A stretch of DNA of 20,000 bases from an uncultured virus (IMG/VR IMGVR_UViG_3300015360_000026). Its lineage: Duplodnaviria > Heunggongvirae > Uroviricota > Caudoviricetes. The notes below the pieces were generated by a model. The model was not told the DNA's origin. It saw only the letters and a program-made list of their open reading frames with translations, and did no database searches. A program made the position numbers and the translations under genes. The DNA is taken from IMG/VR virus record IMGVR_UViG_3300015360_000026; one strand, written 5' to 3'. Below, piece after piece: positions 1 to 20,000 of the stretch. Within the stretch, counting starts at the first letter, position 1. The number at the start of each line of letters is the position of its first letter.

Positions 1-40
1 TTGAAGGACCTCCATGTCCGTGTTGTGATCTGCCCGAGGC

Positions 41-211
41 TTACTGCTTTGGCGTCTCAGCGGCCTTCTCGGCCATCTTGCTCAGCGTGTCGTGGCCGCA
101 CCCCTGGTGCACGTGGCCGCACTTCTGATCCGCCGGCTGGTCGGCAGCCTTCTTCTCGTCGGGCTTGGGTGCTTCGCCCTCGCCCGAGCAAACTCCAGTC
201 TTCTCCATCAT
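41..211 (-). CDS. Small hypothetical protein (56 aa, MMEKTGVCSGEG...ETPKQ), not in the ORF track
   Basis: Manual translation: ATG at 211, TAA at 41-43, GAGGAG upstream; fills the gap after the 239 stop; two CGH motifs. Confidence 0.7.
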   Translation of the reverse strand: MMEKTGVCSGEGEAPKPDEKKAADQPADQKCGHVHQGCGHDTLSKMAEKAAETPKQ

Positions 212-238
212 AACCTGCTCCTCTGTGTACGGACTACA

Positions 239-1657
239 TCACTTCACGTCTTCGTAGTCCAGGGTCTCGACGTCGTGCTTGACCAACACAACGTGGTCGA
301 ACACGCCTTGAGGGTACGAGAAACCCATCGAAGACACAACGAAGGTCTTCTTCAGGTGCGGAACGTGCAGCTTGATCTGCTTGATGTCGAGATCCGGCGG
401 CTCGTACTGCTGGCCGTCCTCGTACCGCGTGTCGTACACCAGGGCGATGCAGTTCTTGCTCTCGATCACGTCGTGGTAGAACGCCGACTGCTTGCCCGTC
501 TCGGGAAACTCGAAGAACACCCGGCGGCGGGCCTTGAGACCGATCGGACCGGTGATGTACGGCAGACCGAGAGTCTCGAAGCCGACAATAATCCCGTCCC
601 GGTGATCGTCCGCCAGTTCGTCGAGGTGCTGGTCGCGATCGCGGCTGCGGTCATCGTCGTCGCGGCGGTGATCGCGGGCCGCACGGACCGAGTCCTCAAA
701 AACTGGCTTCTGAGAGTCGGCAGCGTACGGGTTATCATCGCCGACCTTCCTGCGAATGACCGACTTCGCCGGAGCCATACGAGGGCGTGGGTCAGCCGGA
801 CGGGTCGACAGCTCAGGCGACGGGCGGGACTCGTGAGATTGTCGCGGGGCCTGCTCGACGGCCCCGACCCGCTGGTTGAGCGTCTGCATGCCCTGGGCCA
901 ACTGCGACAACAACGCGACCAGGTTGGGGTCGGTTTGTGGCGGCGACGGCGGGGCGTACTGCGGCGGCGGTGCATACTGCGGCGGGGGCGGTGCGTACTG
1001 GGGATACTGCGGCTGGCCGGGGTACGGCAAATTCACCTGCGGCGGCTGCTGCTGCGGCGGCGGATACGGCACCGGCGTTGCGATGTTCTGGGGCGGTTGC
1101 AGGGGCTGAATGTGGGGCAGCGGGGGTGCCGGGTTGAGCACGCGATCCTCCGTGAGTGGGACAGGGTAACTTCCAGCGAAGTCCCCATAACTGGAACCAT
1201 TGTCGGTCTGCCGCCCGTCCTGCGAGGCTTGAGGCGTCAGGTAGGCGTTACTACCAAGGAGCGAGTTGCTGCGGGCCGGCGGCGAGGGCAGCGGTGCTCC
1301 CCGTGCCAGAGCCGTGGGCGACATGCCGAGCTTGTAGAACGCCTGGTGGGGGTACTTCGAGGAGGCGACAGCTTCGTACACGCTCCGGCTGTTGAGCTGG
1401 GCCATGTCGACGACGGAGCCGCCATCAGGGGCGTCGGGGTCGACGTGAACCACGGACGCGACCGTGGGGTCGAACCCCATAGACCGGCCGTCGTCGCGGG
1501 CCTTGGGCACCACGACCGGCAGGCCGATGCCCGACCGCATGCGTTCGAGCTGCCGGGCGTCCGGGTGCTGGTAGTTTTCGTCGTCGGGCGAGTGCCTTGT
1601 CCACCCCGACCCGCCACCCTGCTCGGGGTCCCAAAATGTCGCAGCCGCCTTCGCCAT
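239..1657 (-). CDS. Hypothetical protein (472 aa) with central Pro/Gln/Tyr-rich low-complexity region and globular C-terminal domain
   Basis: ORF 239..1867 trimmed to ATG 1657 (MAKAAATFWD), preceded by AAGGA; the longer start would cross the 1740-1775 terminator and overlap the upstream gene. Confidence 0.8.
   Translation of the reverse strand: MAKAAATFWDPEQGGGSGWTRHSPDDENYQHPDARQLERMRSGIGLPVVVPKARDDGRSMGFDPTVASVVHVDPDAPDGGSVVDMAQLNSRSVYEAVASSKYPHQAFYKLGMSPTALARGAPLPSPPARSNSLLGSNAYLTPQASQDGRQTDNGSSYGDFAGSYPVPLTEDRVLNPAPPLPHIQPLQPPQNIATPVPYPPPQQQPPQVNLPYPGQPQYPQYAPPPPQYAPPPQYAPPSPPQTDPNLVALLSQLAQGMQTLNQRVGAVEQAPRQSHESRPSPELSTRPADPRPRMAPAKSVIRRKVGDDNPYAADSQKPVFEDSVRAARDHRRDDDDRSRDRDQHLDELADDHRDGIIVGFETLGLPYITGPIGLKARRRVFFEFPETGKQSAFYHDVIESKNCIALVYDTRYEDGQQYEPPDLDIKQIKLHVPHLKKTFVVSSMGFSYPQGVFDHVVLVKHDVETLDYEDVK
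951..1028 (-). repeat. Degenerate coding repeat PQY(A/P)PPP
   Basis: PYPGQPQYPQYAPPPPQYAPPPQYAPP in translation. Confidence 0.75.
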
Positions 1658-1739
1658 GTGCAGTTCCTTGCGAGTACCTTGATCGCCGAGCATTCTACCG
1701 GCCGGCGTCGAACGAGGGGAAGAGGGATCGCTGATAGGT

Positions 1740-1775
1740 AAAAAAAGGCGTGAGCACCCCGGAGGGTGCCCACGC
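1740..1775 (-). terminator. Rho-independent terminator
   Basis: 12-bp stem 1748-1759/1764-1775 (one G-U on the minus strand), UCCG tetraloop, then 7 U; just downstream of the stop at 1785. Confidence 0.9.
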
Positions 1776-5522: not shown

Positions 5523-6692
5523 CTAACCGGGTACGATCAGCGTACTCGGCATGTAGTTGTCCAGCAGCTCTTTGTCGACATCGAAGTATGCCAGATTCGT
5601 CCCCACGACGATACGACACTTCCCCTCGGCCAGGTTGTCGGCCTTGTCGATGACCCGCACGAGCCGAAGGTGCGTAAACGTCCGCAACTGTTCCAACTCG
5701 GGTGCCTTGACATCGACATCCGCTTTGGAATCCTTCGGGACAGCCCCCAACATGCCGCAGCCGGCCTTATTGCACCAGTCCCGCACCCGCTTGTGTCCAT
5801 CGCCGGCGGCGGCTGCCTCCGGACGGCCGTAGAACCCCTTGGTGTGGGTCTTCGTCAGGTCATCGCACACCACGAGGTCGGGCATGGTCGACAAGCTCTT
5901 GACCACGTGAGACACGATCATCTCCCGCATGCTGTCGTTAGTATCGCCACAACCCTTCCACGCCGTGGGGCCAACCCACACAAGTTGGTTCGTGCTGTGC
6001 TTCGACTTGTGGTAGCTCGCCCCAAGCCAGATCACCGTGTGCATCCACTTAGTCCGAGTCTTCAACACGTGCAGCACGATCTGGTCGATGACGTACTGAA
6101 CGGCGTTCCGCCAGCCGATGAGAACCAACGACCGGTCGCGGTGCCAGATGCCGCCTTCGAGGTCGATCGGGAACGGCAGGGGCATGGGCCTGTTCCGGCG
6201 GGCGTCCTCCTCGGCCTTCAGCTCCTCGTGAGCCAGGGCCTCGTCCTTCGCGGAGTGTTTGACGACCACCGACTCGATCCACGGGAGGGCCGTCTGGGCG
6301 AACCCTAGCATCAGCTCCTTTTCGTTGAACGGCTGAGCCGCCTTGTGCATGGCGGCTTGGATGATGTAGTCCTCGGTCATCGGGTGGGCCTTGGGCTCGG
6401 CCTTCATCAGATCCTGCAACTCGCGGTAGGCCACGGCATAACAGCGGCGGAACGCAATCAACGATCCCAGGAGCTGAAGGTATTCCGGCTTGTCGAGGAG
6501 CTTTTTAGCCCACGCCCCCGCGAGGACCAGGGCCTTCTGCTCCTCGCCGATGTCAGAGGTGGCGAGAACCTCCTCCAGCGTCTCCACCGGGGAGTTCATC
6601 ATCCGCACCATGAGCGACAAGGACTCGTTCGAGTCCGCCATGTCGGCAGGCGGCGTCTCGGTCACGACTCGTTCGGTTCCGTCGGCAAGCAT
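5523..6692 (-). CDS. Hypothetical protein (389 aa); C-terminal half resembles a degenerate DnaB/RecA-fold domain without Walker A
   Basis: Long ORF; motif order LPFPIDLEGG..SLVLIG / PDLVVCDDL / ELEQ / RIVVGTN. CDS is secure, fold call tentative. Confidence 0.6.
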   Translation of the reverse strand: MLADGTERVVTETPPADMADSNESLSLMVRMMNSPVETLEEVLATSDIGEEQKALVLAGAWAKKLLDKPEYLQLLGSLIAFRRCYAVAYRELQDLMKAEPKAHPMTEDYIIQAAMHKAAQPFNEKELMLGFAQTALPWIESVVVKHSAKDEALAHEELKAEEDARRNRPMPLPFPIDLEGGIWHRDRSLVLIGWRNAVQYVIDQIVLHVLKTRTKWMHTVIWLGASYHKSKHSTNQLVWVGPTAWKGCGDTNDSMREMIVSHVVKSLSTMPDLVVCDDLTKTHTKGFYGRPEAAAAGDGHKRVRDWCNKAGCGMLGAVPKDSKADVDVKAPELEQLRTFTHLRLVRVIDKADNLAEGKCRIVVGTNLAYFDVDKELLDNYMPSTLIVPG

Positions 6693-7651
6693 TTGAGTTC
6701 TTCCTCTCGGTGTGATAACGCGGTCGCAATTCGTTCCTTGGCCAGCTTGACAAAATTCGGGTTCCGGTCGAACCCTTTGTAGTTACGCCCAGCGTGCACA
6801 GCTGCTACGCCCGCCGTGCCAGACCCGGCAAACGGGTCAAGTACCGTGTCGCCCTTGCGACTCATCAACCGGATCAGCGTGTACGCCATCACCATCGGGT
6901 GCTGATTAGGGACCGGTTGCCGCCCCTTGTGCGTCCCGCACACGCGAGGCGGGCACAATACGTCGTGGTCCGACCGAAACGTCGCGTCCCACCCCTCTTG
7001 GTGTACCACCAGGAAATCGTCCAACACTTTGCCGAACGGGAACAACTCTATCGGCTTGCCGGCCGCAATCCACTCGTCCCGCCTTTTGACGAATCTCGTG
7101 TCCTTGTTAATCGCCCGCCACGGCGTCACCTGCAATTCAGGATTGTCACCATGAAACACGCACTTCTTGCGGTGTTTGACCAGCCGGAGGCACGTCATGT
7201 GGGCAGGGGTGAAGTTAGTCCCGTGATGGTTGTTCTGCCCGAAACCGAACCCCCAGATGATCTCACTGGCCAAGAACAACTGTAGCGTCTCACGACAGTG
7301 ATGTTCAAGGTAGCACCGATGCTGCACGGGCGGAAACAACAACAACGTCCCGTTAACCGGCATGATCTCAACCAGCGGGTCGAGCCACTCGTAACACCAG
7401 GTCCGGTAGTCATCGTCACTCAGGTCGTCACAGATGGGCTTATTATCGCCGTCACGACCGTAGTCCTGGCCGATGTTGTGCGGCGGGTCGCAGTAGATCA
7501 ACTTCGGTTTTATCTGTTGCAGCAAAGCGGAAGTCTTGATGTGATGTACGCAGTCCTCGGGGGTCACCGTCGATTTGAGCACCGGGTCACCGGGCGAAAC
7601 CAGAACTTGAACACCGCCGTCCCACTTCTTTTCCTTCTCACTGTTGGCCAT
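6662..7651 (-). CDS. DNA methyltransferase, N4-cytosine/N6-adenine, beta class (orphan)
   Basis: Motif IV LIYCDPPHNIG precedes motif I VLDPFAGSGT; GRNYKGFD; AAGGAG RBS. Confidence 0.9.
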   Translation of the reverse strand: MANSEKEKKWDGGVQVLVSPGDPVLKSTVTPEDCVHHIKTSALLQQIKPKLIYCDPPHNIGQDYGRDGDNKPICDDLSDDDYRTWCYEWLDPLVEIMPVNGTLLLFPPVQHRCYLEHHCRETLQLFLASEIIWGFGFGQNNHHGTNFTPAHMTCLRLVKHRKKCVFHGDNPELQVTPWRAINKDTRFVKRRDEWIAAGKPIELFPFGKVLDDFLVVHQEGWDATFRSDHDVLCPPRVCGTHKGRQPVPNQHPMVMAYTLIRLMSRKGDTVLDPFAGSGTAGVAAVHAGRNYKGFDRNPNFVKLAKERIATALSHREEELKCLPTEPNES

Positions 7652-7675: not shown

Positions 7676-8065
7676 TCAAGTTCGAGCCGCTCGTGTTCGC
7701 TCGAATGCCTCCAGGTACGCGACAATGGCCTTCGCCCGAGGGAGGGTCAGCCAGCTACGCACGAAGCGGTTGCAATAGTTGTGGATGACACCTCGCACGT
7801 ACAGGCGACGTGTGGACGGCGGCATCTTCCTCACCTTGATGACATGACCCTTCTTGGACTTCTTCTTCTTGTTCGCCTTGAACCCCTTAACGTGCTCATG
7901 ATCGACCACGAGCGGACGGCCCTCAAACGGCTTGCCGCACACCACGCAGGTGTAGTTGCAGGCCGCACACAAAGTGACCCAGTCGGCACTGGTCATGCCG
8001 TACTTAGCCAAGGTGCTCGTATGCGGCATCTTGACAGCCGGTACAACTTCGCCCTTCTCAACCAT
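7676..8065 (-). CDS. Recombination endonuclease VII-like His-Me finger nuclease
   Basis: KYGMT...CVVCG...LVVDHEH...VRGVIHNYCN pattern; TGATG coupling to the upstream gene. Confidence 0.85.
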   Translation of the reverse strand: MVEKGEVVPAVKMPHTSTLAKYGMTSADWVTLCAACNYTCVVCGKPFEGRPLVVDHEHVKGFKANKKKKSKKGHVIKVRKMPPSTRRLYVRGVIHNYCNRFVRSWLTLPRAKAIVAYLEAFERTRAART

Positions 8066-8976
8066 CAGCGGTTCCTCTGCCCGCGACGCCGCACCGGCTG
8101 TGTGGCCGGGCGGGCGGGTGGGTGGTAGAGCGACGTTCCGGAGAACGGCTCGATCTCGATAACCTTACGTTCCTTAGCCACAGGTGGCCGGGCGACGCGG
8201 ACCGGCGGGTGGGCCATGCCCGGCCGTGGCGGCGGGGCATTAGCCGCCATGTCCCGGAACTCCTCGAACAGGTAGTGCGTCAGCCGGGCGTCGAACTCAG
8301 CCCGGTGGGCGTCCGTCATGTCGAGGTTGTACTTCTCTTTGAGCTTGTACTTTTCAACGCAGTGCCGAGTCAGGTTGGAGTGCACACCCGCCCCGCCCAA
8401 CCGGCCGAGACGCTTGAAGTAGTCCTTCATGGTCTCACCGACAATCGGCAACGCCTTGGCCTGGTCGTAGATCTGGTTGCCCTTCTCGATCGCCGCCGTG
8501 TCGAACACGCGGTCGTCGGGCAGGACGAACTCCCGCTTGTAGAACCCGGCCATGTTGTACGCGATCATCTCCTCGTCGAACGCGATGTTATGCCCGACGA
8601 AATAGAACCCGCTGTCGATGAGGCCCTGGAGGATCTCGTAGTACAGGTCAAACGCCCGGTCGGGCTCGACACCCTCGTCGGCCATCCGCTCGTAGCTGGT
8701 GGTGTAGTGCTGGCCGGTCTTGGCCATGCTCTCCCGGACGTAGTCGAGCCGCTCGCGGAGCCAATGGTCAGGCACCACCTTGTGGTTCCGCCAGTCGACC
8801 ACGACGTTGTACCGGCTCGTGATCTTGCAGTCCTCGACGATGACGTGACCGAACTCGGTGATGACGTCAACACCCTTCTTGAACCCCGTCGTCTCGGTGT
8901 CGAAACAACAGTACGTGCGAGGCAACTTGCCGCCGTACTGGTCCGTGAACCATTTGGGCCACATCGGAACGATCAC
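8065..8976 (-). CDS. DEDDh 3'-5' exonuclease (DnaQ/epsilon-like), 303 aa
   Basis: ExoI FDTETTG, ExoII VGHNIAFD, ExoIII AHRAEFDA; start trimmed to GTG 8976 with AAAGGAG RBS (ATG 8964 is an alternative). Confidence 0.92.
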   Translation of the reverse strand: MIVPMWPKWFTDQYGGKLPRTYCCFDTETTGFKKGVDVITEFGHVIVEDCKITSRYNVVVDWRNHKVVPDHWLRERLDYVRESMAKTGQHYTTSYERMADEGVEPDRAFDLYYEILQGLIDSGFYFVGHNIAFDEEMIAYNMAGFYKREFVLPDDRVFDTAAIEKGNQIYDQAKALPIVGETMKDYFKRLGRLGGAGVHSNLTRHCVEKYKLKEKYNLDMTDAHRAEFDARLTHYLFEEFRDMAANAPPPRPGMAHPPVRVARPPVAKERKVIEIEPFSGTSLYHPPARPATQPVRRRGQRNR

Positions 8977-8986
8977 GCCGACTCCT

Positions 8987-9499: not shown

Positions 9500-9527
9500 G
9501 TTCAGGTCCTAGAAACTGGAATCTACA

Positions 9528-9959
9528 TCAGTACCGCTTGCCGTGCTTAACGGGGCGGGTGTGGTTGAACGCCATCTTGGCCACGATGGCCTGGCCCAAC
9601 CGGAGCTTCAGGGCCGCACTCAGGTCCATGATGCGGATCACCGCGTCGGCCAACTCGATCTCGATGTTAGTGAACTGCGGGCACTTCTCGTCCGTCTCGT
9701 CGAAGCCGTGCTTGCGGTGGCTCTCCATCGCCTCAGACAACTCGCTAACCGTCAGCATCAGCTTCCCGGCGAAGTTCTGCTGCTCGGTCCCGGTGCCGCG
9801 ACAGTCCGGGCACTTGACCGGGCTGCACTCGTCGCAGTGGACGTCGACGCCGGTTCCCTTGCACTCCGGGCAGTCCTTCCAGAACTCCTTACTCTTCGCC
9901 CACGCCAGAATCTTCTCGCCGTAAGTGTTGACGGCGTCGGCGAACAGTTCGTCACTCAT
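9528..9959 (-). CDS. MazG-like nucleotide pyrophosphohydrolase with inserted DnaJ-type zinc finger
   Basis: KLMLTVSELSEAMESHRK and IEIELADAVIRIMDL; C-terminal FNHTRPVKHGKRY; CPECKGTG...CPDCRGTG insert; ATGA coupling. Confidence 0.88.
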   Translation of the reverse strand: MSDELFADAVNTYGEKILAWAKSKEFWKDCPECKGTGVDVHCDECSPVKCPDCRGTGTEQQNFAGKLMLTVSELSEAMESHRKHGFDETDEKCPQFTNIEIELADAVIRIMDLSAALKLRLGQAIVAKMAFNHTRPVKHGKRY

Positions 9960-10228: not shown

Positions 10229-10230
10229 CG

Positions 10231-10315
10231 TAACTCCCTTTAGTGACACGACCGGGGACTCGGCCACGGTCGTGACGATCATCTCTTTCACGGCACGAAA
10301 GATCAAGAGGAGCTA
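10231..10315 (-). promoter_or_regulatory. Putative structured intergenic leader (three-way junction) pairing the RBS of the 9956..10228 gene
   Basis: Closing stem UAGCUCCU(C)UU/AA(A)GGGAGUUA; hairpins UCUUUC/GAAAGA and CACGACCG/CGGUCGUG. Confidence 0.5.
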
Positions 10316-12430
10316 CGCCTTCAACGCGGCGTCCGCCCGCTTGGCCAGCTCGCCCTGGAGGGACTCGGTCGTCCAAAACTCCAGTGCCTTCGGGTCGCCC
10401 GCGTCGATGTCGTACGGGTTACTCTTCATCCCGTACACCCACAACAGATCGTCGACGATCTTGGTGCGGGACTTGTACCAGAGCGTGGGGAACTTCGCCC
10501 GTGTCAGGTTGAACACCTGCCCGAAGATGTCGCGGATCTCGGTCTCCGCGAACGGTGCGGTGCGGAGTTGGACGACGTGCCGCAGAGCCCGGATGTTCGC
10601 CGTCATGCCGATCTCGTTCGCCTGCCCGTTGGGGGCAATGCGACGGATAGCACTGGTGATGGCCTTCCGCTTGTCGAAGTTGAACGAGTCGTCCGGCACC
10701 CACTTCAAATCCTCGCGGAGCGTGCCTGCCGGGATGTTCGCCCACGCCGCCAGGCACTTCGACTCGTTCGGCTTGGCCGTCAGACCCGCCTCGGCCGGGG
10801 CGTGCGGGAACTTCGGGTTCGGCTTACGCAGGCCGAGCTTGCACTCGGTCAGGTACACCAGGTCTTCGATGCACGACAGCCCTTCGAGCCACAGATCCTT
10901 CACGGGATTGAGCAGATTGCTCCAGACCAGGTCGATGCTGTCCAGGCGGCAGTACCGCCCCGACGTCTGCGAGTACGCCCACCCGGCCCGCTGACGCACC
11001 TGCTCGTGGGTGTTACCACACCAGAACGCAAGGCCGTGACAGCGAACATAGATAATCCCGTCCTGCGTCTTCGGACAGTACACCTTCCCGTGATAGTCCT
11101 CCTCCCAGAAGTGTTGGGTCTTGATGATCGACACCGACTTACGACTCACACTGACGACCCAACTCGGCTTCGTGTGCCGGATGATGCCATCGCGGAAGTC
11201 TCGTGTGACGCCGGAGCGGTCGTCTTTTCGCACGTTGGCACACAGACCGAGTCGCCCTAAGAGAACCTGCCACTGACCGGCGGCGTGCTCCGTTTCGCAG
11301 TACAAGGCTTGGTGGCCGTTCGAGTGATGTACGGTCCCGTCACCAGACATTGCCGCAGCGAAGAAGCCACGAAGAAGTCGCCGACTCAGATTGAACAGAT
11401 CAGTAACGAAATGCCGCTCCTTGTTGTTAGGCCCGATCATCTGTTTAGCCCACGCCGACAACTCACCGTCCGAGATCGTGAAATACTCGATCCGGCTGTC
11501 AGAGTACGGGAAATACTCGATCCGGCTGTCAGAGTACGGGCCGTGGTGCCGCCACCGGCTCCCAAACAACTCGCTCATGAGCGAGTGCAGTGCCGGCAGG
11601 TTGCCGACCTTCGACTGGTTGATGACGCACTGGTTCGGACGCTCGACGGAAAAAGTACCGTCCGTTGCCATCCATCCCAACCACTCCATCAGGCGGTAAG
11701 CGTCGTAGGTGTGTTCACCGATCTGGAACTGCTCGCGGTCGTCTTCGGCCGCAAATGAAACTTCGTGGTCGATGACGATGGGTTTGCGAAACACCTCCGA
11801 GATCGGCACCTTCTCGGAGTAAAGAGCCACGTTCTCGGCCAGCGACAGCCCACGAGCCCGACGCGGATTGACGCGAGCCGCCCACAACAAGTGGTCGGGC
11901 GTCATGCCGGGCGACACCATCTGCCCGGTCTTCCAACCGAGTAACTTCCCGTCGTAGTCGAAGCTGTGGACGCTGGCAGGAGTCTGCCACTTAGCCTTCC
12001 TGGTGTCCGGGTTCAGCGTCAGGAGTTCATCAGCGACGGTCAAGTCTTCGATCTTCTTCCAACCGCTGTTCGTGTAGACTTCCGTGCCCTGCTCGTAGCA
12101 GTAGACCCGCGAGCAGTCCGTCACGAGGAAGTTGATGTTGCAGTGCTCGAACACCGAGCCGTGGCCCGTGTCGAAACAGCTCTCCAGGTTGGCCTTCACC
12201 GACCGAACCTTGCTCACGTTCGCGTTCTTGCCCACCACCAGGCTCTTGTAGCACAGCTTGGCGTACATGGAGCACAGCGACTCGCCGCCGGAGATGCCCG
12301 CCACGCGGGCGGCCAGGTAGTCGTCCCAGAAGTCCATCTGCTTGGTCTTCTCCAGGTACGCCTTCACACCCGGCTCGTGGATCTCCGTGAACCCGGTCAG
12401 GAACACTTCCGGCTTAACGAGCTGACCCAT
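10313..12430 (-). CDS. thyX: Flavin-dependent thymidylate synthase ThyX containing an intein (705 aa precursor, 342 aa mature)
   Basis: GHGSVFEH, SRVY|THEQVRQR...SQTSGRY, TANIRALRHVVQLR...AETEIR motifs. Confidence 0.93.
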   Translation of the reverse strand: MGQLVKPEVFLTGFTEIHEPGVKAYLEKTKQMDFWDDYLAARVAGISGGESLCSMYAKLCYKSLVVGKNANVSKVRSVKANLESCFDTGHGSVFEHCNINFLVTDCSRVYCYEQGTEVYTNSGWKKIEDLTVADELLTLNPDTRKAKWQTPASVHSFDYDGKLLGWKTGQMVSPGMTPDHLLWAARVNPRRARGLSLAENVALYSEKVPISEVFRKPIVIDHEVSFAAEDDREQFQIGEHTYDAYRLMEWLGWMATDGTFSVERPNQCVINQSKVGNLPALHSLMSELFGSRWRHHGPYSDSRIEYFPYSDSRIEYFTISDGELSAWAKQMIGPNNKERHFVTDLFNLSRRLLRGFFAAAMSGDGTVHHSNGHQALYCETEHAAGQWQVLLGRLGLCANVRKDDRSGVTRDFRDGIIRHTKPSWVVSVSRKSVSIIKTQHFWEEDYHGKVYCPKTQDGIIYVRCHGLAFWCGNTHEQVRQRAGWAYSQTSGRYCRLDSIDLVWSNLLNPVKDLWLEGLSCIEDLVYLTECKLGLRKPNPKFPHAPAEAGLTAKPNESKCLAAWANIPAGTLREDLKWVPDDSFNFDKRKAITSAIRRIAPNGQANEIGMTANIRALRHVVQLRTAPFAETEIRDIFGQVFNLTRAKFPTLWYKSRTKIVDDLLWVYGMKSNPYDIDAGDPKALEFWTTESLQGELAKRADAALKA
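11012..12100 (-). mobile_element. Intein (363 aa) with LAGLIDADG homing endonuclease domain
   Basis: N-terminus CYEQGTEVYTNSGWKKIEDL, block B TPDH, LAGLIDADG-like WLGWMATDG and FFAAAMSGDG, C-terminus YHGKVYCPKTQDGIIYVR...WCGN followed by Thr; removal restores SRVYTHEQVR. Confidence 0.95.
11481..11540. repeat. Perfect 30-bp tandem duplication (2 copies)
   Basis: AAATACTCGATCCGGCTGTCAGAGTACGGG at 11481-11510 and 11511-11540; encodes PYSDSRIEYF twice. Confidence 0.97.
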
Positions 12431-12762
12431 TATTTGTTCTCACTGTATTCGGGAGTAGACAACACATCCGCACTTGGAACGCACGTCCAACCTGCAACGT
12501 GCCATTCGAGCTGCTCTGGCCATTCAGCAACGGTACAAATGTTGCCGTCGCTGCTGTATACCTGATCCTCCAACCAACAGACAATGGCTCCCTGCTCGTT
12601 GACGGTCACCGATTCAATGCTGGTCGGGTCAGAGTTACGGTCGACTGACACGCCCAAACCGACAAAAGGAGCCAACGGCAGGCTCCGCTCTTTGGCATAG
12701 AACTTACAAGAACCCGGCACGCCATCGTGCCCAATCAAACGAATCAACCACACCTTATACAT
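12430..12762 (-). CDS. Hypothetical protein (110 aa), lower GC than neighbours
   Basis: GGAG upstream; TAATG coupling to thyX. Confidence 0.7.
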   Translation of the reverse strand: MYKVWLIRLIGHDGVPGSCKFYAKERSLPLAPFVGLGVSVDRNSDPTSIESVTVNEQGAIVCWLEDQVYSSDGNICTVAEWPEQLEWHVAGWTCVPSADVLSTPEYSENK

Positions 12763-12786
12763 AGCTGTCTCCAGATCCGATACTCC

Positions 12787-13107
12787 TCAAATACAGTAAT
12801 CGGGCGGGAACTCGGACACCTTCACAGCAGCCTCGACGGCTGCCCAGGTCGTGTCCGGCCCGCAGTGGAACTTCCTACCCTTGTAGTTGACACGGTACTG
12901 ACCGAAGAACAAACCAGACACGTCACCGTCTTCCTCACCCGTATCATCGTCGATGTGCTCGGCGACATTGTCGATGAACCTGAACTGCGTGCAGGCCGAC
13001 TCGAACATCGGCACCATCACGACCAACCCGCCCGGAACGTCGTTCTTCCGGGTCCGCTTCACCGTCTTAACCATGGACGGCTCGTCGTGCTTGTCGAACA
13101 CGCTCAC
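12787..13107 (-). CDS. Hypothetical protein (106 aa)
   Basis: GTG start with AAGGAG RBS. Confidence 0.75.
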   Translation of the reverse strand: MSVFDKHDEPSMVKTVKRTRKNDVPGGLVVMVPMFESACTQFRFIDNVAEHIDDDTGEEDGDVSGLFFGQYRVNYKGRKFHCGPDTTWAAVEAAVKVSEFPPDYCI

Positions 13108-13110
13108 CGG

Positions 13111-14082
13111 TCACTCCTTCTTGTTACTCTTCCAAGCGTTCTTCATGTAGCATCCCACACACGCCGCCTTACTGCGGTCGACATCGAAAGGGACGTTGTC
13201 CTCACCGCACTCGTCGCAGTGCTGGAACACGTAGTCGCTGGCGTGCGTGCCGCCGCGACACGAGTTGTACCCGTACTTGCACCTATGGCACGGCACCAGA
13301 TGCGGCAGCTTGCCCATCTTGCACTGGTCGAGCATGGGTAGAGTCCGGTGCCGCAACCGCACCTGGCCCAAGTTCCACGCCCGCAGGCTCGGGGGCACGT
13401 TCGTCTTGATAAACCCCGGCCGGCCCTCGTAACACGCCTTGGATTCGACGAGCACGTACAGCCGCATGGTCACGAGCTGCTCCAGGGAGTCGAACGTGCG
13501 GGCCGTCACACCCTCGCGGGCGTGGCGGGGAATGTGCTCGAAGCCGAAGGACTTCGTGGCCATGTAGCGGCAGAGTTTGCTGCTCCAGAACTTGCGAATC
13601 AACAGCGACGCGGGCGTGCCCGCGATCACCTTGAACACAAACGTGGCCCCCGGCTCGCCTCGCTTATTGAGAGTACGGTTGCACGCCATGATCTGCACCG
13701 GCACCCACTCGGGGAACCGCTGCGTGGTCCACGTGCGAACTGGTCGGAGGGCTTTTAAGCGGGGCTGGTTGCCGGCCAAAAGGTGGCAGGTCATCCGGAT
13801 GAGGTTCTCGTCCAGCTTGGTGCCGATCAGCGGCCGGAGCGACTCCCGGATGACATCCCGGAGTATTGACGGAGACAACTGCTCGGCGACCATGTCGACC
13901 ATGGCCTCGAACCGATCACCCTCCGGGGTCTTCCCCAGGAACTCGTGCATCAGAACTTCGACCAGGGAGTTGCGGAGGGTAATAATCGCCTGGATTGGGT
14001 AGTTCCATTCGATAGACCCTTCCGTCGGCAGCTGCCCGCTGCTCTGCTCTTCGGACTTTCCCTTTTTGTACTCGCTCGGCAT
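13111..14082 (-). CDS. Hypothetical protein (323 aa) with C-terminal Cys-rich zinc-binding region
   Basis: C..PCHRC..C..H and CDEC..CVGC; start uncertain because of overlap with the upstream ORF. Confidence 0.8.
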   Translation of the reverse strand: MPSEYKKGKSEEQSSGQLPTEGSIEWNYPIQAIITLRNSLVEVLMHEFLGKTPEGDRFEAMVDMVAEQLSPSILRDVIRESLRPLIGTKLDENLIRMTCHLLAGNQPRLKALRPVRTWTTQRFPEWVPVQIMACNRTLNKRGEPGATFVFKVIAGTPASLLIRKFWSSKLCRYMATKSFGFEHIPRHAREGVTARTFDSLEQLVTMRLYVLVESKACYEGRPGFIKTNVPPSLRAWNLGQVRLRHRTLPMLDQCKMGKLPHLVPCHRCKYGYNSCRGGTHASDYVFQHCDECGEDNVPFDVDRSKAACVGCYMKNAWKSNKKE

Positions 14083-14566
14083 GGCGTTCCTGTTGCTTGC
14101 GGATCTTCTTCAGCGACGTCTCGGCGTCGATGAACTGATCCTCGACCCACAGAACTGCGTCACCGCTCTGATCGGTCGCCACGAACAGGTGTTCGTAGTC
14201 GCCGTTGTCGTTCACAACACCCTCGAAGTATTCCCATCCTGGGAACCACCGGTCACCGACAAGCCCACGGAGCGTCTTCAGGACGACGCCGAGGAGGTTG
14301 CCGTTGCCGCCGGTGTTGAAGTACCTGACGACGGACTGGAGTAGCAGCTCCAGCCTTGCACAGTCCGCCCGGTCGGCCTGGGTGTGGTTCTCCCACTTCG
14401 CGAGCAGCACGGACTGATCCGTATCACCCTTGAAAAGAGGCTGTCGCTCGTCGAGTACCACCAAGTAGAGGTACAAAGACAGCGACAGTTCTCCAAGCTC
14501 GACCCGCTCGACGCGGTAGCCGTCACGCGGGCTGAGCGGCTTAAAATCATATCGTTCTGTTGTCAT
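13916..14566 (-). CDS. Hypothetical protein (216 aa)
   Basis: Start trimmed to ATG 14566 (MTTERYDF), ATGA-coupled to the 14563 stop; 3' end overlaps the next gene by 167 nt. Confidence 0.7.
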   Translation of the reverse strand: MTTERYDFKPLSPRDGYRVERVELGELSLSLYLYLVVLDERQPLFKGDTDQSVLLAKWENHTQADRADCARLELLLQSVVRYFNTGGNGNLLGVVLKTLRGLVGDRWFPGWEYFEGVVNDNGDYEHLFVATDQSGDAVLWVEDQFIDAETSLKKIRKQQERHAERVQKGKVRRAEQRAAADGRVYRMELPNPGDYYPPQLPGRSSDARVPGEDPGG

Positions 14567-14985
14567 GTTGCCTTCGGTTCCGGAACCGTCAGTGCCCCCT
14601 GCACGAGCTTGTACATCTCCTGGGCGTTCTTGATCAGACTGTCGATGGAGGCAAGCATCGTCTTGCCGTGTGCGTCGCACATGGGGGCAAGGATGTAGTT
14701 CAAGTAAGAGGGGTCGATTTCCTTGAGGTCGGACACGACGTCAATCATCTTGACGCCGTCGACGGACGCCTTGTAGTGAAAGATCGGCAAGCCCTTGGCC
14801 CGCTCGCCGTCGGGGAGGGTGTCGTTGATGGTGTTGAGGGCTCCCGACAGGTAGTTGTACCCGGCAAGGCTCCGCTCCATCTTGAACAGGTCATCCGTCA
14901 TGTTGTCGAGGATGTCACGCGGCGTGCGTGACGGGCGAGGTGGCGAGGTTCGCGGGGGAACCGGCACGGTCGTGGCAGGGGTCAT
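14563..14985 (-). CDS. Hypothetical protein (140 aa)
   Basis: ATGA coupling at both ends. Confidence 0.8.
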   Translation of the reverse strand: MTPATTVPVPPRTSPPRPSRTPRDILDNMTDDLFKMERSLAGYNYLSGALNTINDTLPDGERAKGLPIFHYKASVDGVKMIDVVSDLKEIDPSYLNYILAPMCDAHGKTMLASIDSLIKNAQEMYKLVQGALTVPEPKAT

Positions 14986-15419
14986 TGGTCCGTCCTAAAG
15001 GCCACCCCCACATAACAGCGGAAGGCGTCTTCCGGAGACAGGTCCGTACACTCGTGTCCCAACACGAGGACCGCTGACTTGGGTGGCAGCGGGTCAATAG
15101 ACCGTAAAGATTCCGCCGCCGCCAGACCAATCTGGATGCCCAGACCCCAGATCTCCGACAGTGACCGCCCTTTCGTGCGGTAGGCAAAGATCGGGATGCG
15201 GACATACTGATCCGAGTTCGTCACCCCCCACCTAATGTTCTCGATCAAGACCGGCGTCTGCGGGACCACGTACCGCCCGACGCGGCTCACCTCGGCGACG
15301 TTGAACACGCTGCCGTGCGGGTTCACGCCGTGGAGCAACTCACGCTCAATGACGTACGACGGCGGTACGCCGGTAATCAGGTTGGGCAGTACGTTGCACC
15401 ACTGCACGTCGAACTTCAT
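14982..15419 (-). CDS. Hypothetical protein (145 aa)
   Basis: Start trimmed to ATG 15419 (MKFDVQWC), ATGA-coupled to the glycosyltransferase stop, GAGGAAGG upstream. Confidence 0.8.
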   Translation of the reverse strand: MKFDVQWCNVLPNLITGVPPSYVIERELLHGVNPHGSVFNVAEVSRVGRYVVPQTPVLIENIRWGVTNSDQYVRIPIFAYRTKGRSLSEIWGLGIQIGLAAAESLRSIDPLPPKSAVLVLGHECTDLSPEDAFRCYVGVAFRTDQ

Positions 15420-16204
15420 GCCTTCCTCGTGATCTCGCAGTCGAACTTTTGGTGGGACAGGTCCGGCGGGCCGGGCCTGTAGTCCGCCCACAGTGCTTCA
15501 ATTTTGCCGCTCTCGCCTCGGCGAGGGGCCTTGGACTCTCGGCCCGCATCGTCGGCGTTAATGGCGATGCCCTGTCGATAGTTGACCAGGTGCCGCCCAC
15601 GCTGTTCAAGCAGCTCGCCCAGGATGCGATCGCCTGCTGTGTGGTGCAGTTCAGGGAACGGGTAGTTCCACTCGTGCAAGAACGATGTCCGAGCCGCCCA
15701 CCACGCCCCCTGCGGGAACGTGAAGACGTGGTGCCTATTCACGGGCGTCATGCACCAGGGCTGGGCGTTGATGCCCAGGTGCTGGTTGCCCATCAGCCCC
15801 ATCGTGTACCGGGCACCCACGACCGTCGAGCCACCGCTGATGTGGTTCTTCGACAGATACGTCGACACCACCTCAAACACGTACTTGTTGGTGCCAAGCA
15901 GATAACTGTCGTCGTCGAACCACATCACGTTCTCGGCGACCGGGTTCGCCGTGTCGTAGAACATCCGTCGCATCAGCGGGTACTTGCCGACGTTGCGATC
16001 GGTCGTGTACGTGATGAGCGGGCACAACTTCTTGATCGTCCCGCCCAGCAGGTCCACCGTGGTACAGGTCTCCTCGCCACAAGCGTTGAGGCCGATCCGC
16101 ACGTCGGCAATGAACTTCCAGTTGGCGTGCTGAATGAGTGAAAGCAACACACGCCGAGCAAGATCGGCGTGCGAGCCGTACAGGAGTACGCAAACGGAGA
16201 ACAT
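15416..16204 (-). CDS. Glycosyltransferase, GT-A fold / family 2-like
   Basis: N-terminal FSVCVLLY, RNVGK, VMWFDDDSY (DxD), GAWWAART, GDRILG; AGGAG RBS. Confidence 0.82.
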   Translation of the reverse strand: MFSVCVLLYGSHADLARRVLLSLIQHANWKFIADVRIGLNACGEETCTTVDLLGGTIKKLCPLITYTTDRNVGKYPLMRRMFYDTANPVAENVMWFDDDSYLLGTNKYVFEVVSTYLSKNHISGGSTVVGARYTMGLMGNQHLGINAQPWCMTPVNRHHVFTFPQGAWWAARTSFLHEWNYPFPELHHTAGDRILGELLEQRGRHLVNYRQGIAINADDAGRESKAPRRGESGKIEALWADYRPGPPDLSHQKFDCEITRKA

Positions 16205-16219
16205 CCCTGCTCCTGGTTA

Positions 16220-17197
16220 TCAGACCGCAGCGACAGGCTTGCCGGCCTTCTTCTTTTTCTTCTTGTCGCCCGTCGGCTTGCCGTTGGTTGCGACCGGCTT
16301 GCCGTTGGTTACTGGCTTGCCGTTGGCCGCAGCAGCCGGCTTGGTCTTCATCTTGGGGCTGGTCGCCCGAGCGGCCTCTTCGGCATCCTCGGCGTCCTTC
16401 GCTTCCTTGGCCTCGGCCTCAGCCTTCTCCTTCTCTTCGAGCACCGTCTCAACTCGCACGATGTTCTTCGCGAGGTACTCCTTGAGGTCACCCAACTCGG
16501 TCTCGGTCTTGTCGATCTGGTCTCGCGTCGCGGTCAGCTTATCGAGCAGCGTCGAGGACACGTCAGCCGGGGCCAACTCGTCGATGTTTGAGAACATCGA
16601 CTCCGTGCACGCCTTACCGTAGTTCAGCAGGCCGAGGGCCAGGGAGCCGAGCTTCTGCAACCCGGCCATCGGGCTCGCCGGCCGGCTGTGCGGGCGACCG
16701 CCGCTGCGGGCGTTCTTGCGGGTCATCGCACCGGACCGAACTTCCGCCTCCACCTGGTTCGCCGACAGGCCCTCCTTAATGGCCCGCTTCAGCAGCTTCT
16801 CGGCATCCGCCACCTTGTCCAACTGGGTGACCGCCAGCCAGTGCGACAGCGTCAGATGCTTCTGGTACGGCATCGGGCGATCCGTCCACTCCTGCACGTA
16901 GTCCTTGTCGAACTTGTCCACGAAGTTCTTCAGGCCGTACAGCGTCGCCGTCGTCTCGCCGAAGTACGCGGCCATCTGGGCCACCGCCCCGGTGCCGTAC
17001 GTCGACTCCTTCTTCGGGTCCATCATGTCCCGGACCATCAACCCATCGTTGTACGCCATCAGCACCGTGCCCACGGCCCGCTTGGTGCTACTGGTCCTCC
17101 GGGCATCCACGACCGCCCGCGTCGCGGGTGTCATCGACTCGTACAACTTCGCCAGTTCCTTCTCACTCGGTCCGGTCGTCGCCACTTCGCTCGCCAT
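16220..17197 (-). CDS. DUF1016/YhcG N-terminal-like putative DNA-binding protein with coiled-coil and basic tail
   Basis: AYNDG...TYGTGAVAQMA...TLYGLKNF...LTLSHWLAV...AIKEGLSANQV parallels YWxIG..YG..LS..NL..MRxF..LSWSH...AxxExWSxxxL of DUF1016-N; AGGAG RBS. Confidence 0.65.
   Translation of the reverse strand: MASEVATTGPSEKELAKLYESMTPATRAVVDARRTSSTKRAVGTVLMAYNDGLMVRDMMDPKKESTYGTGAVAQMAAYFGETTATLYGLKNFVDKFDKDYVQEWTDRPMPYQKHLTLSHWLAVTQLDKVADAEKLLKRAIKEGLSANQVEAEVRSGAMTRKNARSGGRPHSRPASPMAGLQKLGSLALGLLNYGKACTESMFSNIDELAPADVSSTLLDKLTATRDQIDKTETELGDLKEYLAKNIVRVETVLEEKEKAEAEAKEAKDAEDAEEAARATSPKMKTKPAAAANGKPVTNGKPVATNGKPTGDKKKKKKAGKPVAAV
16275..16326. repeat. Three copies of GGCTTGCCGTTGG encoding (A/T)NGKP
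   Basis: Copies at 16275, 16296 and 16314. Confidence 0.85.
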
Positions 17198-17234
17198 CGT
17201 CAGTCTCCTAAGTAATGTTCAGACTCTGCGTCGA

Positions 17235-17837
17235 TCAGGCCATGTCCTGCGTGGGACGCCAGCCGTGACCGTTGTTGTGAATCGCACCCACCAGGGGTGC
17301 GAACGGCTGGACGTACAGGAGCTGGGGCTTTTCCTTAGTCCCGCCGAAGTACGTCCAGCGGAGGCCACGCACCCAATAGGCGTCCAGCCCCCCGTTGTGA
17401 ATCAACAAACCTTGCTGCACCCCCTTGCGGGGGAAAATAAGCCCTATCGTCCGATCCAGGGCCTGCCCCGAAACCTGCTCGTAGAACTCCTCGTAGGCTT
17501 CAACCCACGGGGCATCCTGAAAGCGTCGGAACAACGCAGGGGTCGTGCACCGGAGATCGGTATGCAGCTTCACTCCCCCTAGTCGGGAACAACCAAGAAC
17601 AATCGGAAAGGTCGGAAACATCTCATTGAAGAGACTCACCGTCAGAAGGTTCTCACCGACAAGATCGCGAGACTTGCGGAGCATGTCCCACTTCTTGTTC
17701 GTGACGCCGAACCTCTTCAACAGGAACTGGACCTTCCCCTCCTCGAAGCGACGGGCCTCGGAGAGGTTCCACTCGGCCTTCTTGTCACGCCCCTTCTGCA
17801 TGTCGCCGAAAGGGTGCGGTTTCTCTTTGTCGCTCAC
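17235..17837 (-). CDS. Hypothetical protein (200 aa)
   Basis: GTGA-coupled to the recombinase stop. Confidence 0.8.
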   Translation of the reverse strand: MSDKEKPHPFGDMQKGRDKKAEWNLSEARRFEEGKVQFLLKRFGVTNKKWDMLRKSRDLVGENLLTVSLFNEMFPTFPIVLGCSRLGGVKLHTDLRCTTPALFRRFQDAPWVEAYEEFYEQVSGQALDRTIGLIFPRKGVQQGLLIHNGGLDAYWVRGLRWTYFGGTKEKPQLLYVQPFAPLVGAIHNNGHGWRPTQDMA

Positions 17838-19390
17838 GGCATGCCCTCACCCGCTGCCGCCATGCTGGCAAGATAGTCGCCCTCAAGTTGCGGTAGTGAC
17901 CGGATTCGCAGGGCACGCCGCAAGAGAGCCATCAGCTTCGGATCGTTCCGGAGTTTAGCACCCATCTCGGAATAACTTAGCGGGTCCTTCTCAGAAACGC
18001 CAGCCGCCTTGCTCCACGCCTGACAGTCGACGTGACCGCCAGGATTCTTGAACCCCATGTCGAAGCCATCCTCCTTGAGGTACTTCCGGAGGCGGATGTT
18101 CTTCTCCTTATTGCCCTCCATAATGGACCAGAGAAGGCGTACCATCGCCCAGTCCCAGTCCCAGATCGTCTTCTGCTTGAACTCACCCGTCTCCTCATCC
18201 AGTTCCTCCCACCACAGCACGCGGGTCACGATGCTGCGGTGCGTAGGGCCGAACGAGTTCTTCGCACAGCTAATCTCGACCTGGAAGCCGTCCCACTCGG
18301 ACGACTCAATCACCTTCGGGCCGACGCGACGCAGCTCCAACTCGAAACTCTCCTGGAACAGCGTCTGCTTGCCCCCGGCCATGTTGCGGACGTCCTGACC
18401 GGTGTCCGGGTTCTTGTCGAGCTTCAGGTGGTTGACCAGCACGACGCTGAACGGCCACCCGTCGAGCCACTGGGGCATGGTCTTCATGTACCGCGTGATC
18501 TTCAGGGCCTCCACCGGAAAGCCGCGACTCGCCGAGCCCTCCTTCCTGATCGACTCCTGACTGTCGTCGCTCATCTTGCCCATGATCGAGTCGACGCCGA
18601 ACAGGATCGGGAACGTCCGGCCAGGGCCGGGCTTGTCCTTCGTGCCGTCCATCATCTTCTTCTGGATCTTGACGCCGTCGGTCATGGCCTTCTGCCAATC
18701 CTCGACGCTGTTGCACCGCGTCAACACCATCCGCTCGAACGCCTCCTGCCCCATGATGCTCTCGTACCACGGGGGGTTGAACTTCGTCTCATTTTCTTTT
18801 AACTCAAAACCGCCACCAGCCAGATCGTGCCACCGGGCGATCTCAGCCAGCAGACCCGACTTGCCAGTGCCGTGCGTCGACACCAGGTGCCACACGAGAC
18901 CCATCGGGAAGCCCTGATTAGCGATCACGAACTCGAACGCAAACGCCGGGACAGGGAACGACACCACCAGCTGCTTGCTCTCCGACCCCAAGAATACGCC
19001 AGTGTGCCCCGACCCCAGTCGGGCCTGGTCGGCCACGCTCTTCATGTAATCGTCCATCTTGTGACCGCGTGCCGTACCGCCGCTTCGCCACCCCTTGAGG
19101 CTGTCCTGGGCCTTCCGGGTCAGCTTGCGGGGTTCCCCCAGACTGACCGTCTTCGGTCCGGTCTTCACGGCCTTACCCGCCGACGTCGTCACCGCCTTGG
19201 GGGGCGGCACCGGATCGGTGTTCGCTTCTTTCTCGTCATCATCACACGCAACGGTCGGCAGTTCGAGGGTCGTGACGTCGAAGAAGTCCGTCTCACCCTC
19301 TTCCTTGGCCGACACGCCGCCGATCGGTAATCCGTCCCCCTCCGATTTAGGGGCGACGGGCTTCAGGTAGTCTCTCTTGATCCGAGCCAT
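17834..19390 (-). CDS. RecA/UvsX-like recombinase (518 aa) with long N-terminal extension
   Basis: GFPMG..STHGTGKS (Walker A variant), ENETK (catalytic Glu region), GVDS (Walker B), VLVNH, AGGKQTLF, CAKNSFGP; start trimmed to ATG 19390 with AGGGG RBS, downstream of a terminator. Confidence 0.88.
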   Translation of the reverse strand: MARIKRDYLKPVAPKSEGDGLPIGGVSAKEEGETDFFDVTTLELPTVACDDDEKEANTDPVPPPKAVTTSAGKAVKTGPKTVSLGEPRKLTRKAQDSLKGWRSGGTARGHKMDDYMKSVADQARLGSGHTGVFLGSESKQLVVSFPVPAFAFEFVIANQGFPMGLVWHLVSTHGTGKSGLLAEIARWHDLAGGGFELKENETKFNPPWYESIMGQEAFERMVLTRCNSVEDWQKAMTDGVKIQKKMMDGTKDKPGPGRTFPILFGVDSIMGKMSDDSQESIRKEGSASRGFPVEALKITRYMKTMPQWLDGWPFSVVLVNHLKLDKNPDTGQDVRNMAGGKQTLFQESFELELRRVGPKVIESSEWDGFQVEISCAKNSFGPTHRSIVTRVLWWEELDEETGEFKQKTIWDWDWAMVRLLWSIMEGNKEKNIRLRKYLKEDGFDMGFKNPGGHVDCQAWSKAAGVSEKDPLSYSEMGAKLRNDPKLMALLRRALRIRSLPQLEGDYLASMAAAGEGMP

Positions 19391-19415
19391 TGCAGCCCCT
19401 TGAAAGTCACTAGAC

Positions 19416-19447
19416 AAAAAGAAGCCAACCCCATGACTGGGGTTGGC
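19416..19447 (-). terminator. Rho-independent terminator
   Basis: Perfect 10-bp stem GCCAACCCCA/TGGGGTTGGC (19424-19433/19438-19447), 4-nt loop, followed on the minus strand by TTCTTTTT. Confidence 0.88.
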
Positions 19448-19466
19448 ACGACCTAGAAGCCGGTTT

Positions 19467-20000
19467 CTACTTCTTGTTCGCCTTGCCACCCGCCGCCGGC
19501 GGCGGGGTGGCGGCAGGATTCTTGCGAGCCGCAGCACGGGCAGCAGCGGCCTTGGCAGCCTGAAGCGTGTTCGCCATCTCGGCGTCCTTCTTCTTGGGCG
19601 ACGCCACGGCCTCAGCCTCCTCGGTCTGCGTCCCCTTCTTACTCGCCGGCTTGGCAGCCGCAGCGGCCGGCTTCGCAACCGGCTTCGCGACAGGAGCTGC
19701 CGGTTTGGCCGCTGGCTTCGCGACCGGCTTGGCGGCGATCACCTCATCGAACACCTCGTCACCGCTCGGCTTGGACTTGGGCTTGCCCGCCTTCGGCTTC
19801 ACCGGGGCGACGACTGCTTCTTCCTCTTCTTCCTCGTCACCCTCCTCATCTACCTCCTCGTCGTCTTCGTCACCCTCTTCAGCTTCCCCTTCGTCAGCGT
19901 CGCCTGCTTCAGGGTCGGCGTCGTCGGCCTCCTCATCGTCCTCAGCTTCGACGTCATCATCGTCGTCAGCGTCGTCACCGTCGTCACCGTCGTCACCGTC
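19467..20000 (-). CDS. C-terminal 177 aa of a protein starting outside the window: Asp/Glu-rich tract followed by Ala/Lys/Pro-rich tail
   Basis: Frame of ORF 19467..19802 stays open to 20000 (DGDDGDDGDDADDDDVEAED...); followed by a terminator. Confidence 0.85.
   Translation of the reverse strand, partial: DGDDGDDGDDADDDDDVEAEDDEEADDADPEAGDADEGEAEEGDEDDEEVDEEGDEEEEEEAVVAPVKPKAGKPKSKPSGDEVFDEVIAAKPVAKPAAKPAAPVAKPVAKPAAAAAKPASKKGTQTEEAEAVASPKKKDAEMANTLQAAKAAAARAAARKNPAATPPPAAGGKANKK
19971..20000. repeat. 9-bp tandem repeat GTCGTCACC (3+ copies, encodes GDD), runs off the window edge
   Basis: Directly visible at the window end. Confidence 0.85.

Follow-up and report, generated by a model that had tools for sequence, protein, structure and literature searches.

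A GCGC-free stretch of an uncultured jumbo phage of about 215 kb and the other words purged from its genome

The DNA analyzed in this work, hereafter the window, is a 20,000-nt stretch (positions 1 to 20000) of the uncultured viral record IMGVR_UViG_3300015360_000026. It comes from a real, uncultured jumbo phage, and its genes, all on the minus strand, include those for a DNA methyltransferase, an endonuclease VII-like protein, an intein-containing ThyX thymidylate synthase and a RecA-like protein (Table 1). The tetranucleotide GCGC is missing from this stretch. Together with about 20 longer words, it has been removed genome-wide by codon choice, under selection.

Words purged from the window and the phage genome

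A matching record of 208,145 nt (G001), used for the genome-wide counts, is 100% identical to window positions 8162-20000 and 1-991. As the 7.2 kb present in the window alone bring the combined length to about 215.3 kb, window and G001 jointly probably make up the complete genome. The phage thus exceeds 200 kb, and G001 encodes the capsid (HK97-type, a weak NCBIfam match), terminase and baseplate J proteins of a jumbo phage.

The window, with 61.5% GC, contains no GCGC, as the initial annotation had stated. The 150 to 200 copies that it expected correspond to base composition, from which we obtained 179; a second-order Markov model gave about half of that, 90, synonymous codon shuffles of the 25 genes gave 119 +/- 8, and dinucleotide shuffles 160 +/- 10. 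No other 4-mer of the window comes near GCGC in depletion (z about -9.5, the runner-up being at -4.0), and Markov-corrected counts upheld the depletion in G001, with 2 copies vs 942 expected, i.e., an observed/expected ratio (O/E) of 0.002. Both survivors lie inside genes (2 vs 1102 expected by codon shuffle), and the 17.6 kb outside called genes have none vs 106 expected. CCGG (189 copies) and GGCC (177) are close to expectation in the window and were rightly described as abundant, whereas CGCG is somewhat low, at 86 vs 115 by the Markov model and 85 vs 152 within window genes by codon shuffle, with an O/E of 0.78 across G001. Overlaps with CCGCGG, ACGCGT and GCGC would explain this shortfall.

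The absence is reproducible. A second assembly, which differs from the window by 3 substitutions over 12,013 nt, has no GCGC vs 94 expected, and contigs from 4 other public runs span 30 of 30 window bins with 21 variant positions, none of which creates GCGC. These variants are uninformative for selection because just 2.6% of random substitutions would make GCGC, and the alleles at the 21 positions are too few to show any ongoing selection. The source runs of the sequence are microbial-mat metagenomes.

The initial annotation had assigned the lower-GC intein and the 110-codon orphan gene next to thyX to the same selected gene pool. The intein is informatively devoid of GCGC (0 vs 6.5 expected, with 0 of 300 shuffles reaching zero), which fits equally well a long stay in this genome and arrival from a donor under similar selection. 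For the short orphan gene the absence is uninformative (0 vs 1.5 expected, with 19% of shuffles having none), and its assignment to the same pool was too strong.

Codon usage in G001 reveals how the sites were lost. Expected counts of 367, 343 and 398 in the three reading frames compare with 0, 0 and 2 observed. For alanine before a C-starting codon, GCG is used 0 times in 1155, vs 38% elsewhere, and GCC is used in 63%; arginine after G is encoded by CGG in 57% in place of CGC. Before GC, T is the third base of all 29 cysteine codons (TGT) and of all 55 AGY serine codons. The main replacements, GCG to GCC and CGC to CGG, are transversions. Because the sites disappeared synonymously in each of the three frames, mostly through changes beyond the reach of methyl-cytosine decay, the loss reflects selection. 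A small protein-level cost of the purge is visible in the Cys-Ala dipeptide, whose O/E of 0.40 in G001 is the lowest among 15 records (range 0.40-0.96); the other two GCGC-free records, at 0.57 and 0.73, lie inside the range of tolerant records.

GCGC is one entry among about 21 purged words. Among 45 informative 6-bp palindromes of G001, 17 are below 0.1 of expectation, one lies between 0.1 and 0.5, and the others are kept, including GTCGAC, GCCGGC, GACGTC and CGATCG. The distribution is bimodal, and the losses are all-or-none. Twelve palindromes are at zero (AACGTT, AAGCTT, AGGCCT, AGTACT, ATGCAT, CCCGGG, CTCGAG, CTGCAG, GGATCC, GGGCCC, GTTAAC and TTCGAA), CCGCGG, ACGCGT, ATCGAT and GGTACC occur once each, and GAGCTC occurs five times, still below 0.1 of expectation. 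The window itself lacks CCGCGG, CCCGGG, CTCGAG, GAGCTC, GGGCCC, AGGCCT, ACGCGT, CTGCAG, TTCGAA, GGTACC, AGTACT, GGATCC, AAGCTT, AACGTT and ATGCAT; the degenerate versions CYCGRG, GRGCYC, GGYRCC and RGATCY were considered as the source of these zeros and failed to explain them.

Longer words are also purged in G001 genes: CCTNAGG (1 vs 23 expected), GCGGCCGC (0 vs 20, partly due to overlap with GGCSGCC), GGCSGCC (2 vs 160) and GGCGGAG (2 vs 70, the survivors being one per strand). The one-letter neighbours GGCWGCC, GGCGGAH and HGCGGAG are at normal level. A search for gapped Type I-like motifs in G001 gave nothing convincing beyond CCTNAGG, the remainder being low-count words among many tests. 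GCGC and 12 further purged words are sites in a REBASE-derived table, as are CTCGAG, CTGCAG and ATTAAT, and we take the remaining purged 6-mers to be known restriction sites too. Neither GGCSGCC nor GGCGGAG turned up in the part of that table (PMC6286503) available to us.

Table 1. Features of the window
Feature	Position	Strand	Basis
GCGC-free stretch of ~215-kb jumbo phage	1..20000	.	Counts, extended genome-wide
Beta-class N4/N6 DNA methyltransferase	6662..7651	-	Pfam PF01555 3e-30; PADLOC MTase_II; PDB matches including CcrM and N4-cytosine methyltransferases
Endonuclease VII-like (HNH) gene	7676..8065	-	Pfam and PHROG
DEDDh exonuclease	8065..8967	-	Pfam, PHROG and PADLOC scans
MazG-like pyrophosphatase	9528..9959	-	PHROG matches
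ThyX thymidylate synthase with intein	10313..12430	-	Pfam Thy1, LAGLIDADG_3, weak Hint_2
Intein coding region, 58% GC	11012..12100	-	Borders by eye from Cys...Asn motifs
Surviving GGCGGCC (GGCSGCC) site, one of only two in G001	12308..12314	+	Equals G001 position 4147
110-aa orphan gene, 53% GC	12430..12762	-	Gene call
RecA-like protein, family marker	17834..19390	-	125 homologues

Purges in related phages

Fifteen records of the phage family were read, with G004, G007, G008, G009, G010 and G016 each covered to within 2-7 kb of the end. At least one all-or-none 6-mer purge occurs in 14 of the 15, with 1 to 23 words each and lists that differ; the commonest words are CTCGAG (10/15), GAGCTC (8/13) and AAGCTT (7/13). 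Asymmetric words are purged as well, namely CTGAAG, GGTCTC and GCTCTTC in G003 and GAATGC in G007, all of them listed restriction sites, which rules out a simple avoidance of hairpins. Among 7-mers, CCGWCGG is purged in G002 (0/12), G003 (5/56), G005 (1/90) and G007 (0/23), GCGWCGC in G007 (0/19) and G010 (3/18), and TCCWGGA in G002 and G008. A search of the available part of the REBASE-derived tables returned neither CCGWCGG nor GCGWCGC; together with GGCSGCC and GGCGGAG they may be candidates for undescribed restriction specificities.

Loss of GCGC itself is rare in the family. None of 48 other RecA loci is free of it, and the two closest (56-59% identity, on short contigs) are at expectation. 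Of 81 capsid loci, comprising G001 and the 80 best of 108 with near-duplicates among them, 78 keep GCGC, and the three that lack it (G001, L155 and L209) stand apart on a quick capsid tree of 64 distinct proteins, on which the change count compared low and intermediate rows only. Whole-record counts gave 1 vs 451 expected for G011, with the survivor at the contig end and its relative G016 at 0.37, and 0 vs 607 for G012, which is 55% complete. G003, equal to G001 in GC, retains GCGC (2108/2095). The position of the GCGC-free loci on the tree and these counts indicate that the purge is lineage-specific and repeated.

It also switches between close relatives. The sisters of G012, G013 and G015 (72-74% nucleotide identity to G012), keep GCGC and have lost AGCT (0/195 and 0/511). 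Such differences in 4-mer purges between sisters at 72-78% nucleotide identity mean that a full purge is switchable over a short evolutionary distance. The close sisters that switch 4-mer purges are L209/G012, L208/G013, L215/G015, L210, L216 and L205; L210 shows neither the GCGC nor the AGCT purge, and CCWGG is purged in G012, G013 and G015. Elsewhere, L219 and L220 are without CCGG, and L160 and L161 nearly without CGCG. Strong purges were also seen in unrelated viral loci: L307 has 1 GCGC of 74 expected at 62% GC, L309 has fifteen 6-mers at zero, L298 five depleted 4-mers, and L327 no CCGG of 50 expected.

The suggestion that absence of GCGC gives a host-prediction fingerprint was therefore too strong, as most capsid loci keep the word, close sisters differ, and GCGC enzymes occur in many genera: of the 41 rows for such enzymes in the REBASE-derived table, the first 30 already include Haemophilus, Campylobacter, Helicobacter and Lactobacillus, among others. 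Taken by itself, loss of GCGC says little about the host.

Host assignment and origin of the purge

The host very probably belongs to the Planctomycetota, as judged from the relatives of a few phage proteins. Among the 120 rows listed for CsrA homologues, three name bacteria, Rubinisphaera italica, a Pirellulales and a Planctomycetia bacterium, and one further named row carries a contaminant flag. One G001 protein exceeds the cut-off of TIGR02996 (NCBIfam), a family linked to Gemmata by its model name; its atlas matches are below 0.9, and it has no plasmid match. The C-terminal domain of another protein matched three atlas clusters at 0.94, 0.93 and 0.92 with Planctomycetota as the commonest phylum, and this domain has 16,759 relatives. 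A match to a planctomycete cytochrome domain is weak and below cut-off. Against this assignment, RecA homologues lie in metagenome-assembled genomes (MAGs) labelled Acidobacteria (P0013) and Nanopelagicales (L012), although these are probably misbinned phage contigs. GroES and CsrA gave no host signal against plasmids, and a search with the RpoA C-terminal domain gave 3 matches. Two adjoining genes at L051:12925-14896 (-) share the C-terminal domain of the planctomycete paralogous families, and the TIGR02996 gene is at L059:15472-16500 (-).

Methylation of GCGC has been reported in this phylum. A marine Planctomycetaceae MAG carries it as N4-methylcytosine (m4C), with three orphan methylases only (Hiraoka et al. 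2022, PMC8919816), and in a hot-spring set it was found in all Planctomycetota genomes (bioRxiv 10.64898/2026.06.24.734251), according to the parts of both papers available to us. This supports a link of the purge to the host group. Of 64 viral loci that carry a domain of planctomycete type, 13 have less than 0.5 of the expected GCGC, vs 0 for CGCG, 3 for GGCC and 3 for CCGG; GCGC is below 0.1 in 5 of them, two of which are duplicates with only 5 expected, and its median is 0.84. Four planctomycete plasmids have GCGC O/E values of 0.83, 0.85, 0.72 and 0.31, and three controls 1.02, 0.91 and 1.10; the plasmid at 0.31, Planctopirus limnophila pPLIM01 (L275, NC_014149), is phage-like, with terminase, portal and capsid genes. 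Twelve planctomycete name stems retrieved 14 rows with 12 distinct sites from the accessible part of the REBASE-derived table (PMC6286503). Sites of these rows that are at or near zero in G001 are GGGCCC (Gemmata), CTCGAG (Rhodopirellula), CTGCAG and ATTAAT (Phycisphaerae) and RGCGCY (Zavarzinella); CATCC and GATGC were not among its depleted words. The C5 methylase family PF00145 was absent from G002-G005 and from three plasmids.

The purge is probably an escape from host Type II restriction. Type II enzymes of the host would select against GCGC and about 20 longer words in the phage DNA, and as each family member would bear a list set by the population of hosts it infects, the lists would differ and GCGC loss would arise repeatedly. 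The earlier proposal of strong selection by a GCGC-targeting defence thus holds as to selection, which is restriction-like, and was too narrow as to its target.

Several observations weigh against host Type II restriction. In the marine MAG with methylated GCGC, the only methylases are orphans (PMC8919816), and GCGC is absent from the 8 rows for methylases in Planctopirus limnophila (PMC4752239, of which 2 of 5 motif rows were covered). No GCGC enzyme is among the 14 planctomycete rows of the portion of the table covered (PMC6286503), and in these rows and the literature searched a GCGC cutter with its partner methylase is shown for no planctomycete. G001 keeps CCATGG, CGTACG, RGGWCCY, CCWGG and GCSGC, which are sites of other planctomycetes in the same rows (CCATGG, RGGWCCY and CCWGG are purged in its relatives). 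The match of the phage 6-mer list to depletion in planctomycete plasmids is unspecific; as a fingerprint of planctomycete DNA, the list failed its control (Azospirillum, rho -0.60 vs -0.35 to -0.49). The 64 viral loci are not independent, several being on shared contigs, and the comparison is internal to the planctomycete-type set. Finally, methylation of GCGC throughout the phylum would predict avoidance in most family members, yet 78 of 81 capsid loci keep the word.

That last point also bears on an unlikely alternative, selection by a non-orthodox host system: either an exported, methylase-free HinP1I-like nuclease that meets the DNA at entry, or a nuclease or regulator dependent on modification and responding to the GCGC mark that a conserved orphan methylase of the host would put on replicating phage DNA. 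The orphan-only m4C methylation of the marine MAG (PMC8919816), the occurrence of the mark in every Planctomycetota genome of the hot-spring set (10.64898/2026.06.24.734251) and the rank of GCGC as the most often depleted GC-only palindrome in the 64 loci speak for such a system. However, a conserved system should hit most family members, the other ~20 purged words resemble ordinary Type II targets, and avoidance of modification-dependent sites was only weak in the available part of Rusinov et al. 2018 (PMC6286503).

A little less likely still is a methylase-free GCGC nuclease encoded by the phage itself, which would destroy host or rival DNA and spare a genome without sites. It would suit a near-complete purge that switches between close sisters (G012 vs G013 and G015), and about half of the G001 genes are unannotated while three are of HNH type. 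Nevertheless, no restriction-enzyme family was found in the window and G001 by Pfam (242 + 14 proteins), PADLOC (209), PHROG (123) and NCBIfam (114) scans, nor in 51 G011-specific, 22 G012-specific and 66 of 109 G015-specific genes (at least 100 aa; 11 tile-border genes excluded), one G011-specific gene matching a phage PDDEXK family. PF11463 (HinP1I-like) was negative in called genes and in six-frame translations of G001, G011 and G012, in a search without a positive control, since there was no match in the 15 virus records and 301 Actinomycetota-group genomes. No protein was exclusive to the three GCGC-free records by blastp of G011 and G012 ORFs of at least 80 aa against the 15 records and the window, G012 being 55% complete. 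Two GCGC sites persist inside G001 genes, and the other purged words require a host explanation regardless. The three HNH-type genes and the many orphans keep us from lowering this alternative further. Among the HNH genes, the endonuclease VII-like gene, which gave no tblastn match in 9 relatives, probably encodes a junction resolvase, the alternative being a sequence-specific nuclease. The methyltransferase of the window, the sole DNA methyltransferase recognized in the phage, does not track the purge, because distant homologues (27-29%) occur in 6 of 9 GCGC-keeping relatives.

Two further explanations are largely refuted and have next to no probability left. Mutational decay, in which GCGC methylation would be followed by deamination or biased repair without selection, fits the 1.25-fold excess of GTGC/GCAC over codon-shuffle expectation in G001, but deamination is not the main cause since both products, GTGC and GCAC, alter the amino acid in the equally purged G|CGC frame (2 vs 398), the main replacements are transversions, and mutation alone yields neither 0.2% of expectation nor 20 other words. 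An overall tendency to avoid palindromes or alternating purine-pyrimidine DNA, or else an artefact of library or assembly, would agree with the mildly low CGCG, but most palindromes persist, the purges include asymmetric words, overlaps would account for CGCG, the equal-GC relative G003 retains GCGC, and separate assemblies and 4 runs concur.

Host Type II restriction remaining the favored cause, a more specific proposal is tentative and rather doubtful as a whole: the purge lists may read out an undescribed planctomycete repertoire, in which GCGC loss would answer a methylase-independent (exported, HinP1I-like) or methylation-reading nuclease tied to the GCGC mark of the phylum, and GGCSGCC and GGCGGAG (G001), CCGWCGG (G002, G003, G005 and G007) and GCGWCGC (G007 and G010) would be targets of new specificities.

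Other phage genes and comparison with known systems

Gene calling on G001 (L050-L060) gave 229 genes, 222 of them on one strand. They encode a split multi-subunit RNA polymerase, a B12 ribonucleotide reductase, a PolA-uracil-DNA glycosylase fusion (L050:14079-17552, -) and a tubulin/FtsZ-like protein (L060:425-1840, -) that 7 of 9 relatives share at 48-63%; CsrA, GroES and numerous glycosyltransferases are encoded as well. With no integrase family match among G001 proteins (Pfam) and its own RNA polymerase, PolA and ribonucleotide reductase, the phage is apparently lytic. Candidate host-control genes are those for CsrA (L057:14589-14783, +), a ribosome modulation factor-like protein (L057:16362-16571, -), a free RpoA C-terminal domain (L051:17949-18227, -) and GroES (L058:9420-9797, -). 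About ten glycosyltransferase-family genes, a sulfotransferase, sugar-pathway genes and a dCTP deaminase lie on L053, L058 and L060. The glycosyltransferases, the deaminase and the one methylase leave room for partial DNA modification; the heavy site purge suggests that the phage DNA is exposed to nucleases.

The 125 homologues of the RecA-like protein are often on 160-240 kb contigs, its own longest contig having 215,452 nt. In the search of viral contigs a single-sequence query found nothing and an alignment query matched; no match was obtained among cultured phages. ThyX matches are weak and largely through the intein, which has a LAGLIDADG-like domain and contains a short tandem duplication of an 11-residue unit (x2). 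A further LAGLIDADG-bearing insertion, a probable intein, is in the terminase large subunit gene (L052:4207-7416, +), one of the few plus-strand genes, and the sole ACGCGT of G001 sits inside it. Window positions 239-1666 (-) encode a conserved protein with a proline/glutamine-rich repeat stretch and without family match.

The core finding is ordinary, because site avoidance is textbook knowledge. A literature search found no paper on a purge of sites in planctomycete phages and none on a lytic phage of Gemmata; new in detail are the group of hosts concerned, 4-mer purges that recur and switch within one family, and the four 7-mers outside the table searched. The purge is of value for the access that it gives to bacteria about which little is known: family purge lists predict planctomycete restriction specificities, relevant to host assignment and to DNA delivery into planctomycetes, and the four 7-mers are concrete candidates for new enzyme specificities.

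HhaI and HinP1I-type restriction-modification systems have as their listed site the word purged here, although neither the phage scans nor the accessible 14 planctomycete rows revealed an enzyme of this kind. M.HhaI is a C5 methylase. Its C5 mark differs from the planctomycete GCGC mark, which is reported to be m4C (PMC8919816, in the part available). Elimination of orthodox Type II sites is documented in non-temperate double-stranded DNA phages, including avoidance of GCGC in Moraxella phages (Mcat3, 3 vs 92 expected), in the accessible part of Rusinov et al. 2018 (PMC6286503), to which the following comparisons are limited. Like those phages, the one studied here shows near-complete, all-or-none, synonymous loss of short, mostly palindromic listed sites; unlike in those cases, its host is uncultured and probably a planctomycete, and its list has about 21 words. 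Its GCGC O/E of 0.002 on 942 expected is below all large-expectation rows among the GCGC rows listed (60 of 80), and CTGAAG, purged in the relative G003, belongs to the II/IIG class, which was unavoided there. The planctomycete methylome papers (PMC8919816; 10.64898/2026.06.24.734251) describe hosts and, in the parts available, report no site loss in planctomycete phages; the word methylated in them is the word lost here, in the same inferred host phylum.

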